A DNA stretch of 64,000 nucleotides from the NCBI GenBank assembly GCA_022071965.1, contig JAJVIQ010000021.1, positions 1,288 through 65,287 of the forward strand. Reading direction: 5' to 3'. Below are positions 42,037-44,918 of this stretch, in pieces. The translations under genes were made by a program, and so were the position numbers. Source of the stretch: Gammaproteobacteria bacterium. Its GTDB lineage: Bacteria; Pseudomonadota; Gammaproteobacteria; JAJPIJ01. A model generated the notes under the pieces. The model saw only the letters and a program-made list of their open reading frames with translations, did not search any database and was not told the origin of the DNA. Positions within the stretch are counted from its first letter, which is position 1, and each line of letters opens with the position of its first letter.

Positions 42037-42669
42037 ATGATCGCTTTCGCACGGGCCATCGCGCCCCTGCTGCTGGTGGCCGGAATGCTCGGCGGCTGCG
42101 GGAGCAGTGCGCCGATCCCCACCGATACGTACTATCGCCTGGCTGACCCGCGAGTCGCCGCGGCTGCGGGACCGCCGCTGGTCGACGGGGGAATACTGGT
42201 GGAGGCATTCCAGGCCGATGCCCTCTACCGGGAGCGCCCGTTGCTTTTCAGCGACGACGCGGCCGACCTGACGCTGAAGCAGTACCATCATCACCATTGG
42301 CAGGAATCCCCGCCGCGGCTGCTGCGCGAACAGCTGATCCTGTATCTGCGCGCCGCCGATGCCGCGCCATGGGTCGCGAGCCGCGCCGATGAGACGCCGG
42401 CGCTGACCGTACGCGGGCGCATCCGGCGCTTCGAGCACATCATCGGCGCGGATGCGGTGACCGCGCGTGTCGGCCTGGAGCTGCAGGTGCTGGGACAGGA
42501 TGGAGGCGTGCTCGTGCTGCGCGATTATCACCATGACGAGGGGGCAGCGGGCAAGGACGTGGCCAGCGTGGTGAGGGCGATGGACGCCGCCGTCAACTCG
42601 GTCTTCGGGCGGTTTCTCGCGGACGCGCGAGCCGCCGTGCGCGCGCACGCGACCGACCGGCCGCCGTGA
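42037..42669 (+). CDS. PqiC/DUF330-like ABC-transport auxiliary lipoprotein
   Basis: Lipobox 'LVAGMLGGC' followed by 'PTDTYYRL', typical of this family. ATG 42037 (SD GAGGA) is preferred to the tracked TTG at 42025. Confidence 0.7.
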   Translation: MIAFARAIAPLLLVAGMLGGCGSSAPIPTDTYYRLADPRVAAAAGPPLVDGGILVEAFQADALYRERPLLFSDDAADLTLKQYHHHHWQESPPRLLREQLILYLRAADAAPWVASRADETPALTVRGRIRRFEHIIGADAVTARVGLELQVLGQDGGVLVLRDYHHDEGAAGKDVASVVRAMDAAVNSVFGRFLADARAAVRAHATDRPP

Positions 42670-44918
42670 AGGGCTTCCTCACCAGGTTCAGGCGGCACCG
42701 CGTGCGGATCCTCGTGAGCCTCGCCACGCTTGCCGTTTTTCTGCTGCACGCGCGCGACGAGGAGGGGGGGCGCTTCCGCTGGGGGCTGATCGACAAACTC
42801 GAGCACGTCGCCTACGACGCCCGCCTCGCGCTCAGCATGCCGCGCACCGTGGATCCACGCATCGTCATCGTCGACATCGACGAGAAGAGTCTCGGCGCGG
42901 AGGGGCGGTGGCCGTGGCCCCGACAGCGGATTGCGGCGATGCTCGAGCAGCTCTTCGAGAAGTACCGCGTGCGGCTGGTCGCGTTCGACGTCGTCTTCGC
43001 GGAACCGGACCAGAGCTCCGGCCTGCACGTGCTCGAGGAGCTCGCCAACGGCGAGTTGAAGAACGTGCCGCAGTTCGGGCAGGCCCTTACCCGCCTGCGG
43101 CCGTCGCTCGATGGTGATGCGGCGCTGGCCGAGGCATTGAAGAAGTACCCGGTGGTGCTCGGGTACTTCTTCAACGAGGCCAACCCGGCGCGCTCCGGCG
43201 CCCTGCCGCCGCCGACCTTCGTGAAGGGCAGCTTCCCCGGCAAACGTGTCGATTTCCTGAAGGCGGTGGGCTATGGCGGCAATCTCGAACAACTGGTGAA
43301 GGTCGCCGCGGGAGCCGGGCATTTCAATCCGTCACTCGACGTCGATGGCGTGGTCCGGCGGGTGCCGATGGTGTTCGCTTTCGAGGATGCGGAGTACGAG
43401 GCGCTCTCGCTCGCGGTCGCGCGCCACTACCTCGGGGTGAAGGAGGTGCGGGCGGAGTTCGAGCCGGTGCCCGCGATGGCGCGCCGCAATTATTCAGGAC
43501 TGGAGTGGTTGCAGGTCGGCAAGGGACGCATACCGGTCGATGAGTATGTGCAGGCGCTGGTGCCCTACCGCGGCCCGCAGGGCAGCTTCCCGTACGTCTC
43601 GGCCTCCGACGTCATTGCCGGCAAGGCCGATCCCGGCGTGCTGAAGGAGGGTGTGATCGTCCTCGTCGGCACGACCGCCGCGGGCCTGCTGGACATGCGG
43701 ACCACGCCGGTACAGCGCGCCTATCCCGGTGTCGAGATCCACGCGAACCTGGTCGCCGGCATACTCGACGGGAAGCTCATGCAGCGGCCCGCCTACGTGC
43801 GCGGGCTGGAGTTCATCCTGCTGCTGCTGTTCGGAATCGTATTCGCCCTCGCGCTGCCGGCCCTCAGCCCGTTGGCGGCCACGCTCACGGCCGCCGGCAT
43901 GCTGGCGGCGTACGTCGGTCTGAACCTGGTGTTCTGGCAGGCCGGCAAGATGGTCGTGCCGGTCGCCTCCGGCATCCTCACCATGCTCGTCATGTTCCTG
44001 CTGAACATGTCGTACGGCTACTTCATCGAGACGCGCGGCAAGCGCCAATTGACGAACCTGTTCGGACAGTACGTGCCGCCGGAACTCGTCGACGAGATGG
44101 CCCGCGATCCGGAGAAATACTCGCTGGAGGCGGAATCCCGCGAGATGACGGTGCTGTTCTCCGATGTCCGCGGCTTCACCTCGATCTCCGAGGGACTGGA
44201 GCCGAGGCAGCTCTCGGAGCTCATGAACCAGTTGCTCACGCCCATGACGCAGGTCATCCATCTGCAGCGCGGCACCATCGACAAGTACATGGGTGACGCG
44301 ATCATGGCGTTCTGGGGCGCCCCGGTACCAGATCCCAACCACGCCGCCAACGCGGTCACGGCGGCGCTGCAGATGATGGCCAGGCTCGGCGAGATCAATG
44401 CCTCTTTCCGCCAGCGGAGCTGGCCGGAGATCCACATCGGCGTAGGCATCAATACCGGGACGATGAACGTCGGCAACATGGGTTCGGAGTTCCGCATGGC
44501 GTACACCGTGCTCGGCGACGCGGTGAACCTGGGGTCGCGTCTGGAAGGTCTGACCAAGGGCTACGGCGTCGGTATCATCGTCAGCGAATCCACCGCGAAG
44601 GCCGCGACGCAGTTCGCCTATCGCGAGCTCGACGTGGTCCGGGTGAAGGGCAAGGACAAGCCAGTGGCCATCTACGAGCCGCTGGGCCCCGCCAGCGGCA
44701 TGGACGCGCGCGTACGCGATGAGATCAAGCTGTATCGCCAGGCGCTGAAGTACTACCGCGCGCAGGAATGGGACATGGCCGAGCTGCAATTTCTCAACCT
44801 GGCGAAATCATCCTCCTCGCCGCAGCTGTACGCGATGTACGCGCAGCGTGTGGCGCACTTCCGTCGCGAACCGCCGCCAGCCAAATGGGACGGTGTCTTC
44901 ACCCACACCAGCAAGTAG
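42666..44918 (+). CDS. CHASE2-sensor class III adenylate (nucleotidyl) cyclase
   Basis: GTGA overlap with the upstream gene. CHASE2 'IVIVDIDEKSLGAEGRWPWPR', then 3 TM helices. Cyclase core 'MTVLFSDVRGFTSISE', 'IDKYMGDAIMAFWG', 'YTVLGDAVNLGSRLE'. Confidence 0.85.
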   Translation: MKGFLTRFRRHRVRILVSLATLAVFLLHARDEEGGRFRWGLIDKLEHVAYDARLALSMPRTVDPRIVIVDIDEKSLGAEGRWPWPRQRIAAMLEQLFEKYRVRLVAFDVVFAEPDQSSGLHVLEELANGELKNVPQFGQALTRLRPSLDGDAALAEALKKYPVVLGYFFNEANPARSGALPPPTFVKGSFPGKRVDFLKAVGYGGNLEQLVKVAAGAGHFNPSLDVDGVVRRVPMVFAFEDAEYEALSLAVARHYLGVKEVRAEFEPVPAMARRNYSGLEWLQVGKGRIPVDEYVQALVPYRGPQGSFPYVSASDVIAGKADPGVLKEGVIVLVGTTAAGLLDMRTTPVQRAYPGVEIHANLVAGILDGKLMQRPAYVRGLEFILLLLFGIVFALALPALSPLAATLTAAGMLAAYVGLNLVFWQAGKMVVPVASGILTMLVMFLLNMSYGYFIETRGKRQLTNLFGQYVPPELVDEMARDPEKYSLEAESREMTVLFSDVRGFTSISEGLEPRQLSELMNQLLTPMTQVIHLQRGTIDKYMGDAIMAFWGAPVPDPNHAANAVTAALQMMARLGEINASFRQRSWPEIHIGVGINTGTMNVGNMGSEFRMAYTVLGDAVNLGSRLEGLTKGYGVGIIVSESTAKAATQFAYRELDVVRVKGKDKPVAIYEPLGPASGMDARVRDEIKLYRQALKYYRAQEWDMAELQFLNLAKSSSSPQLYAMYAQRVAHFRREPPPAKWDGVFTHTSK

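Follow-up and report, generated by a model that had tools for sequence, protein, structure and literature searches.

A CHASE2 adenylate cyclase gene closing a gammaproteobacterial string of GAF-phosphatase, partner-switch and Mla-type transporter genes, and a possible cAMP path between their products

The stretch of DNA considered here (the window) comprises 64,000 nucleotides of a Gammaproteobacteria bacterium (assembly GCA_022071965.1, contig JAJVIQ010000021.1, positions 1,288 to 65,287 of the forward strand). The window is GC-rich. It carries a plus-strand string of genes, most of whose junctions are overlaps or very short gaps; the last gene, at 42666-44918, encodes a receptor-type class III cyclase with a CHASE2 sensor. 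The same string contains a phosphatase with a GAF domain, a kinase and a STAS protein of the partner-switch type, and the components of an Mla/MCE-type transporter. The reading developed below is that cyclic AMP (cAMP) made by the cyclase could be read by the GAF domain of the phosphatase, and in this way reach the switch and the transporter. The members of the string and the features used in the argument are listed here by window position.

Ends at 36801, plus strand: endonuclease III (nth), member of the string
36805-37236, plus strand: DUF1841, member of the string
37233-38516, plus strand: GAF-SpoIIE (PP2C-type) phosphatase, 427 aa (Pfam)
37335-37847, plus strand: GAF domain of the phosphatase, about residues 35-205 (PF01590, PF13185)
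38513-38929, plus strand: RsbW-type serine kinase (HATPase_c_2), 138 aa (PF13581, E-value 1e-26)
38959-39312, plus strand: STAS protein of the anti-sigma-antagonist type with a DSSG motif (Pfam)
39305-40117, plus strand: MlaE-like permease (Pfam)
40124-40924, plus strand: MlaF-like ATPase (Pfam)
40949-42028, plus strand: MlaD/MCE protein (Pfam)
42025-42669, plus strand: PqiC/YmbA-type auxiliary lipoprotein, 214 aa, lipobox LGGC (PF03886, ABC_trans_aux)
42666-42669, plus strand: GTGA overlap, with the cyclase start GTG at 42666-42668 and the lipoprotein stop TGA at 42667-42669 (read in the sequence)
42666-44918, plus strand: predicted CHASE2 class IIIb adenylate cyclase, 750 aa (Pfam, PDB alignments, orthologues)
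42774-43838, plus strand: CHASE2 extracytoplasmic sensor domain, residues 37-391 (PF05226, E-value 2.9e-60)
44136-44663, plus strand: class III cyclase catalytic domain, residues 491-666 (PF00211, Guanylate_cyc, E-value 1e-23)
44163, 44283, 44295, 44505, 44526 and 44538, plus strand: codons of the catalytic residues D500, K540, D544, T614, N621 and R625, respectively (PDB alignments)
44664-44915, plus strand: conserved C-terminal extension of the cyclase, residues 667-750, ending WDGVFTHTSK (orthologue alignment)

There is firm ground both for the identity of the cyclase gene and for its place at the end of the string. Nucleotides 42660-42669 read gccgccGTGA, and the GTG at 42666 is the earliest possible start of the 750-aa open reading frame (ORF); since the homologues are equally long (745-757 aa) and align from residue 1 with a coverage of 100%, this start is taken as the right one. 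The original prediction, made from the letters of this DNA, had placed the cyclase GTG on the stop of the PqiC-like gene, and the overlap is there in the sequence; its further claim that the cyclase closes a co-directional string is supported by gene order together with that overlap. The cyclase gene is probably coupled translationally to the lipoprotein gene before it. A consensus scan for promoters and terminators (three sites against 1.7 expected and eight against 6.5 expected from shuffles, hence no excess) was uninformative, and it is this uninformative scan that returned no promoter-like site within the lipoprotein gene. Elsewhere in the string, DUF1841 is split between two called ORFs (74 and 67 aa) in the relative with 75% identity (L081:3883-4294), which may reflect a frameshift or an assembly error.

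Judged by its alignments, the product of ORF 42666-44918 is a receptor-type adenylate cyclase with the Lys/Thr pair of class IIIb. Its match to PF00211 scores 84.3 bits against a curated cut-off of 21.9, and its layout consists of an N-terminal transmembrane segment, a periplasmic CHASE2 domain, three transmembrane segments, an FGQY transducer motif, the catalytic domain and the C-terminal extension. Reading the translation by eye, hydrophobic stretches are found at about residues 14-28, 381-400, 403-424 and 429-452, and the N-terminus is basic. This basic N-terminus, with one transmembrane segment before and three after CHASE2, puts the sensor on the extracytoplasmic side and the catalytic domain in the cytoplasm.

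The best solved relatives of the cyclase are Synechocystis Cya2 (2w01), which is the top sequence match with E-values of 4e-33 to 6e-37, its E488K variant fused to a phytochrome (6fht), CyaB (3r5g) and CyaC (1wc0). D500, in FSDVRGFT, and D544, in GDAIMAF, align on the metal aspartates of Cya2, CyaB and CyaC, and N621 and R625, in VNLGSRLE, on the transition-state pair of the same three enzymes. Regarding base specificity, K540 (DKYMGD) lies at the position held by E488 in the guanylate cyclase Cya2 and by Lys in its adenylate-cyclase mutant, and T614 (YTVLGD) aligns on the Thr of Pseudomonas aeruginosa CyaB (YTIIG) and Spirulina CyaC (FTAIG). These six residues are invariant across 25 orthologues of 58-76% identity. 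Both the catalytically complete core and the Lys/Thr pair proposed in the original prediction are hence found where they were expected, all the quoted motifs being present and the specificity residues being confirmed as Lys and Thr once aligned to structurally characterised cyclases. Some members of the class IIIb adenylate cyclases respond to bicarbonate/CO2.

The extension of about 85 residues that follows the catalytic domain also contains positions that are invariant in the orthologues (E686, R698, W702, Y722, W741 and K750). Cya2 is a CHASE2-regulated enzyme whose own C-terminal extension is required for activity (PMC5995499), and the extension of the window protein, ending WDGVFTHT(S/T)K, may correspond to it. 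A second cyclase of the same genome, which lies outside the window on the minus strand (G000:C37:567-1727), shares 41% identity with the window protein over residues 358-747 of the latter; the transmembrane segments, the catalytic domain and the C-terminal extension are there without CHASE2, and a protein binding cyclic nucleoside monophosphates (cNMPs) is encoded about 4 kb away. Short paralogues of this kind, of 430-500 aa, occur in many relatives.

The candidate reader of the cyclase product is the phosphatase encoded at 37233, a gene to which the original prediction had assigned a GAF domain and in which Pfam finds GAF together with SpoIIE. When the GAF sequence was compared with all solved structures, the top 11 PDB matches were all cNMP-binding GAF domains, with E-values of 1e-19 to 1e-12, headed by CyaB2 (1.4e-19) and phosphodiesterase (PDE) 2A GAF-B (2.6e-18) and continuing with PDE5, Lcd1 (5w10) and PDE10A GAF-B. 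One GAF of an HD-GYP protein is also among the best matches; every other GAF domain scores 1e-7 or weaker, and those with other ligands (PtsP, DevS, YebR) match at 4e-7 or weaker. The stretch FYPAIDAGTGFLTRSILCAP...GALELINK of the phosphatase aligns with the PDE2A stretch that ends in GVAELVNK. The cAMP contacts listed for the GAF-B domain of CyaB2 include R291, T293, I308, D356 and N359 (PMC4411481). In the alignment of the phosphatase to that contact list, D356 is kept as D119, N359 is replaced by T122 and T293 by S59, with the same Thr and Ser that PDE2A has at these positions. Among the 38 orthologues examined, the pocket is conserved at D119, T/S122, G123-F124, T126-R127-S128, E145, N148-K149, F156 and D160. 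The string of letters 'NK...F...ED' noted in the original prediction holds in its first four members, N148, K149, F156 and D160 of the NKFDE motif being invariant in 38 homologues; the final Glu does not, this residue being R161.

An AlphaFold2 model of the phosphatase (pLDDT 87.5) gave Lcd1 with bound cAMP as the best Foldseek match of the GAF domain, at a TM-score of 0.82 and a root-mean-square deviation of 2.6 Å. Because the fold comparison scores the PtsP domains as high as Lcd1, the assignment to a GAF subtype rests on the sequence ranking, according to which this domain is specifically of the cNMP-binding type; from this we infer that it would bind cAMP. No other GAF domain of cNMP type was found in the genome by tblastn.

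The remaining parts of a partner switch are complete in the string, comprising the PF07228 phosphatase, the PF13581 kinase and a PF01740 STAS protein with a phosphorylatable Ser. The top structural matches of the phosphatase half (Foldseek) include the RssB phosphatase domain, SiaA-PP2C, SpoIIE and Rv1364c RsbU, and its SpoIIE Asp/Gly motifs are invariant in homologues. Some relatives encode the phosphatase and the RsbW-type kinase as a single fusion protein of 555-574 aa (L084:4659-6326; P0144, P0145, P0180, P0239), and this natural gene fusion argues for the two working together. The STAS protein has TM1442, SpoIIAA, RsfB and RsbV as its best PDB matches, and its DSSG motif aligns with those of TM1442 and SpoIIAA-type antagonists. 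An identity as a homologue of MlaB itself was considered and set aside, since the protein matches anti-sigma antagonists and no MlaB chain is among its PDB matches. The STAS gene (38959-39312) overlaps the start of the MlaE-like gene (39305) by 8 nt, no sigma factor gene lies within the string from 35495 to 44918, and the genes that follow STAS are components of the Mla-type transporter. The DSSG motif, the overlap with the MlaE start, the antagonist-type matches and the string without a sigma factor together suggest that the STAS protein is a phosphorylation-controlled, MlaB-like accessory protein. By the same sequence features, the GAF-phosphatase/RsbW/STAS set is predicted to work like a partner switch with a non-sigma output.

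On these grounds, a path from the envelope to the transporter can be proposed. An envelope signal perceived by the periplasmic CHASE2 domain would control the cytoplasmic class IIIb catalytic dimer, whose activity would raise cAMP, and the cyclase would be transcribed as the last gene of the string nth, DUF1841, GAF-SpoIIE, RsbW-type, STAS, MlaE, MlaF, MlaD, lipoprotein and cyclase. By analogy with other cNMP-GAF enzymes, cAMP would bind the GAF domain and activate the phosphatase, which would then dephosphorylate the STAS~P made by the RsbW-type kinase. The free STAS protein would in turn engage the kinase or the MlaF-like ATPase, setting the activity of the Mla/MCE-type transporter. We consider it plausible that cAMP controls a phosphatase switch that acts on a lipid-type transporter. 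Gene identities, catalytic residues, GAF subtype, gene order, conservation and expression are observed, whereas the binding of cAMP by the GAF domain, the direction in which the parts regulate each other and the target of STAS are inferred; to the full path from cyclase cAMP through GAF-phosphatase and STAS to the transporter we assign a probability of roughly 0.5. The original prediction had described this relationship as feedback; the genes suggest a feed-forward path instead, unless the activity of the transporter alters the envelope signal sensed by CHASE2.

Beyond the 3′ end of the cyclase lies a second module, outside the scope of that earlier account, whose genes converge on the cyclase and are its most conserved partners (45024-49169).

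44961-44993, no strand assigned: terminator-like hairpin with A-run (AAAA) and U-run (UUUUU) flanks (fold of 44905-45040)
45024-45761, minus strand: FHA-domain protein, 245 aa (PF00498, E-value 1e-24)
45776-46798, minus strand: PP2C phosphatase, maximal ORF of 340 aa (PF13672)
46623-49169, minus strand: CHASE2-TPR-Ser/Thr protein kinase, 848 aa (PF05226 and PF00069)

The true start of the PP2C gene is probably near 46630, because its relatives are 273-285 aa long. The CHASE2 domains of the cyclase and of the Ser/Thr kinase share 30% identity, and the kinase, the PP2C phosphatase and the FHA protein would probably modulate the cyclase or act in parallel to it. Located where the cyclase and FHA genes converge, the hairpin may terminate transcription in both directions; the surrounding 136 nt (44905-45040) fold no better than shuffles do (z -1.1). 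Two plus-strand ORFs in this region, at 44958-46010 (350 aa) and 46488-49430 (980 aa), were rejected as genes: neither has a Pfam match, and both are shadows on the strand opposite the FHA, PP2C and kinase genes. In relatives they return tblastn matches of 25-66% identity, which can lead synteny scans astray.

The gene neighbourhoods in relatives were surveyed both from the cyclase and from the phosphatase. The cyclase-centred survey covered 80 loci on contigs from one genome per species, with cyclase identities of 48-59%. FHA and PP2C adjoin the cyclase in 56 of these 80 loci and the kinase in 51, and in the betaproteobacterial loci the kinase, PP2C, FHA and cyclase genes follow each other in this order on one strand. 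In 45-47 of the loci, mostly betaproteobacterial, a gene resembling class II cAMP phosphodiesterases (PF02112, metallo-beta-lactamase fold) begins a few bases 3′ of the cyclase and is followed by a GAF-MshEN-T2SSE (PilB-like) ATPase and then by a GAF-HD-GYP protein. The best solved relatives of the GAF domains of both effectors are again cNMP binders (CyaB2, 1.5e-21; PDE5, 2.2e-22). Of the 56 loci in which the FHA module is present, 51 have a GAF effector of cNMP type within 10 kb, and three different kinds of output domain occur among these effectors. As an example of the betaproteobacterial block, the seven genes at L016:3767-10926 encode the kinase, PP2C, FHA, cyclase, PDE, GAF-ATPase and GAF-HD-GYP, and a pilin gene comes next. 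None of the class II PDE, the GAF-MshEN-T2SSE ATPase and the GAF-HD-GYP protein was found by tblastn in the 3.56-Mb genome from which the window comes. STAS, kinase and Mla genes stand upstream of the cyclase only in a handful of gammaproteobacterial loci among the 80. Close relatives, whose cyclases are 65-75% identical to that of the window, keep the full gene order from nth to mutS, including the 1-4 nt overlap at the junction, and in one lineage among them the phosphatase is fused to the RsbW-type kinase.

The phosphatase-centred survey took in 38 full-length orthologues of 40-72% identity with about 19 kb around each. The RsbW-type kinase follows the phosphatase in 32 of these loci, STAS in 30 and the Mla genes in 27-28; the CHASE2 cyclase follows in 12-13, belonging to eight families, and the whole arrangement is kept in 11-12, likewise from eight families. 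Among the variants, L034 and L122 have the GAF-phosphatase, RsbW and STAS genes directly before the cyclase without Mla genes, in L001 the phosphatase is missing and RsbW, STAS and the cyclase are present, and L124 and L126 retain FHA and PP2C and have lost the cyclase and the kinase. Nested variants such as L034 and L122 indicate that the partner switch is not tied to Mla alone.

At the level of whole genomes, an even sample of 400 Gammaproteobacteria was scored for the GAF-phosphatase (38 genomes) and for orthologues of the cyclase, defined as full-length matches of at least 650 bits (56 genomes). Where the phosphatase is present, 22 genomes carry the cyclase orthologue and 16 do not; where it is absent, the corresponding figures are 34 and 328 (odds ratio 13, Fisher p 1e-11). 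With families as the unit, and with totals that are approximate, the value is about 8. A class III cyclase of any kind is encoded in all 38 phosphatase genomes, as against 258 of 401 (64%) overall (Fisher p 3e-8). In this sample the GAF-phosphatase is thus confined to cyclase-bearing genomes and enriched where the orthologue of this particular cyclase is present. The phylogenetic co-occurrence on which the original prediction depended is found, with an odds ratio of about 13 in 400 genomes and adjacency in eight families. Class III cyclase domains number six in the genome of the window itself, next to some 20 proteins with a classical cNMP-binding domain (PF00027), an unusually dense cyclic-nucleotide network for a gammaproteobacterium.

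Two alternatives to the proposed path concern the molecules themselves. The cyclase might make cyclic GMP or some other product, or be a catalytically dead sensor scaffold, given that its closest solved relative, Cya2, is a guanylate cyclase of the same CHASE2 architecture. This is highly improbable: the specificity of Cya2 rests on E488, and the single E488K change turns it into an adenylate cyclase (PMC5995499), so that the Lys found at this position in the window protein, K540, accompanied by T614, led to the rejection of the guanylate cyclase assignment; moreover, all catalytic residues are invariant. It is rather less improbable, although still unlikely, that the GAF domain of the phosphatase binds no cyclic mononucleotide, sensing another small molecule or serving only for dimerisation. 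PDE2A GAF-A and PDE5 GAF-B are examples of NKFDE-type GAF domains that do not bind cNMPs. Several observations weigh on this side and against the proposed path. Two of the six CyaB2 contacts are not kept in the phosphatase (R291 is A56 and I308 is Q73), the positions of PDE2A F438/D439 are occupied by a Cys and a gap, Y115 varies among the orthologues, and R161 at the fifth NKFDE position is likewise variable among them. In addition, the pocket is equally conserved in genomes without the CHASE2 cyclase orthologue, and the PtsP GAF domains, which bind no cNMP, reach TM-scores of 0.81-0.84 in Foldseek, as high as that of Lcd1. On the other hand, the comparison by sequence speaks strongly for cNMP binders and against the other solved GAF domains, the pocket residues from D119 through D160 are conserved, and the genomes that host the phosphatase encode a class III cyclase in 38 of 38 cases against the base rate of 64%.

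The remaining alternative, the main rival of the proposed path although we regard it as somewhat unlikely, is that the genes are neighbours by descent: the cyclase would serve the kinase, PP2C and FHA proteins, its cAMP being read by CAP-type proteins, and the phosphatase/RsbW/STAS/Mla unit would be a separate system, situated in a single gammaproteobacterial clade between the nth and cyclase genes; if the phosphatase GAF domain does bind a cNMP, any cyclase of the genome could supply it. Much of what counts against the proposed path speaks for this explanation. The most constant neighbours of the cyclase are the CHASE2 Ser/Thr kinase, PP2C and FHA genes, which is hard to square with an exclusive link to the phosphatase, found near the cyclase in only one of the 80 loci (L034) as compared with 56 for the FHA module; conversely, the tightest partners of the phosphatase are RsbW, STAS and Mla (32, 30 and 27-28 of 38), and at least ten loci with the GAF-phosphatase, RsbW, STAS and Mla genes and with room for a cyclase have none adjacent. 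The gammaproteobacterial arrangements resemble nested losses in a single syntenic block from nth to mutS (L001, L002, L008, L034, L124, L126; with L122, the same nested presence and absence is seen within a constant frame from nth to FHA), so that one event in an ancestor may account for the adjacency. The statistics of co-occurrence are uncorrected for phylogeny and genome size, and because 16 of 38 phosphatase genomes lack the cyclase orthologue and 34 of 56 cyclase genomes lack the phosphatase, the link is neither obligatory nor exclusive. The six cyclase domains and the 20 or so PF00027 proteins, the latter being possible receivers of cAMP, point in the same direction, as does the restriction of the -4/-1 start/stop overlap at the lipoprotein/cyclase junction to the family of the window and one other genome, more distant relatives having gaps of 5-100 bp there. 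Metatranscriptome contigs compared over 41000-45100 of the window indicate expression of the locus in communities from wastewater and bioreactors, the organism itself being found in bioreactor, sludge and soil metagenomes. Short contigs from three runs (X25, X26, X28) cross the lipoprotein/cyclase junction at 98-99% identity (42460-42753, 42568-42756 and 42520-42725), which speaks for the cyclase belonging to the operon; this support is weakened in that they are unstranded, of low depth and may include DNA, and in that one contig also spans the convergent 3′ ends.

Against mere descent stands the tightening of the junction to an overlap of 1-4 nt in the family of the window. The company of a cNMP-type GAF effector in 51 of 56 cassettes, with three outputs, is hard to explain without a link from cyclase to GAF domain; neither the betaproteobacterial GAF effectors nor the PDE occur in this genome, whose only cNMP-type GAF domain is that of the phosphatase; and L034 and L122 keep the GAF-phosphatase, RsbW and STAS genes right before the cyclase despite the absence of Mla. 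The step from cAMP to the phosphatase GAF domain remains the most economical account of three independent observations: a GAF domain of cNMP type, a cyclase family that in different lineages stands beside cNMP-type GAF effectors with three kinds of output, and a phosphatase that occurs only in genomes with a cyclase and is enriched in those with this one. A broader version of the proposed path, which we offer tentatively and consider doubtful as a whole, is that an envelope-sensing cAMP cassette has swapped its GAF effectors between lineages, and that here a cAMP-gated SpoIIE phosphatase switches an Mla/MCE-type transporter via a sigma-less RsbW/STAS pair.

To our knowledge, most CHASE2 sensors have no established ligand or physiological role, and the regulation of Mla/MCE-type transporters is largely unknown. 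If cAMP does gate the GAF-SpoIIE phosphatase, this would be the first partner switch controlled by a cyclic nucleotide, and the STAS protein the first phosphorylatable one to control an Mla-type ABC transporter; bacteria would then be reading cAMP through GAF domains attached to very different outputs within one conserved cassette. Should the effector swap also hold, it would amount to a second-messenger-controlled loop for outer-membrane lipid homeostasis.

The known parts of this system, namely CHASE2 cyclases, class IIIb cyclases, cAMP-GAF enzymes and non-sigma partner switches, have been described before, and it is their combination that was found undescribed in the searchable literature. 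Searches there returned no account of a SpoIIE phosphatase gated by a cNMP-type GAF domain, of a cAMP-GAF partner switch or of an Mla-type operon that includes a partner switch, and no paper on a cassette of CHASE2 cyclase, FHA protein and kinase. Among the cyclases, Cya2 (2w01; 6fht) resembles the window protein in its CHASE2 domain, transmembrane segments, FG(R/Q)Y transducer, class III domain and C-terminal extension, but it is a guanylate cyclase and carries Glu/Gly where the predicted adenylate cyclase of the window has its base-specifying Lys/Thr, and it has no known link to GAF-phosphatase, Mla or FHA/kinase genes. CyaB and CyaC share with the window cyclase the Lys/Thr pair, the metal aspartates and the Asn/Arg pair, whereas their sensors are MASE2 in CyaB and of the receiver/histidine-kinase type in CyaC rather than CHASE2. 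In Sinorhizobium meliloti, CyaD1, CyaD2 and CyaK are CHASE2-linked class III cyclases that convert an external signal into cAMP (PMC13001267); the reader of this cAMP is the CAP-type regulator Clr and not a GAF domain, and the gene context is another one.

On the side of the effectors, Anabaena CyaB1 and CyaB2, Leptospira Lcd1 (5w10) and Myxococcus GacB have GAF domains of the same sequence type, in which the binding of cAMP activates a fused output domain; their outputs are a cyclase or GGDEF, in contrast to the SpoIIE/PP2C phosphatase of a partner switch encoded in the window. Both SiaA/SiaB/SiaC of P. aeruginosa, which has a non-sigma output, and RsbU/RsbW/RsbV combine a PP2C phosphatase, a HATPase_c_2 kinase and a phosphorylatable STAS protein, as the window does, but the module of the window differs in having a cNMP-type GAF domain as input, no sigma factor in cis and a place within an Mla/MCE-type operon. 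The nearest counterpart is the betaproteobacterial cassette, with its orthologous cyclase (48-59% identity), its kinase/PP2C/FHA trio and its cNMP-type GAF effectors next door. There, however, the trio lies upstream on the same strand and not in convergent orientation as in the window, and the genome of the window, devoid of the PDE and of both GAF effectors of that cassette, has the SpoIIE phosphatase as its sole GAF effector.

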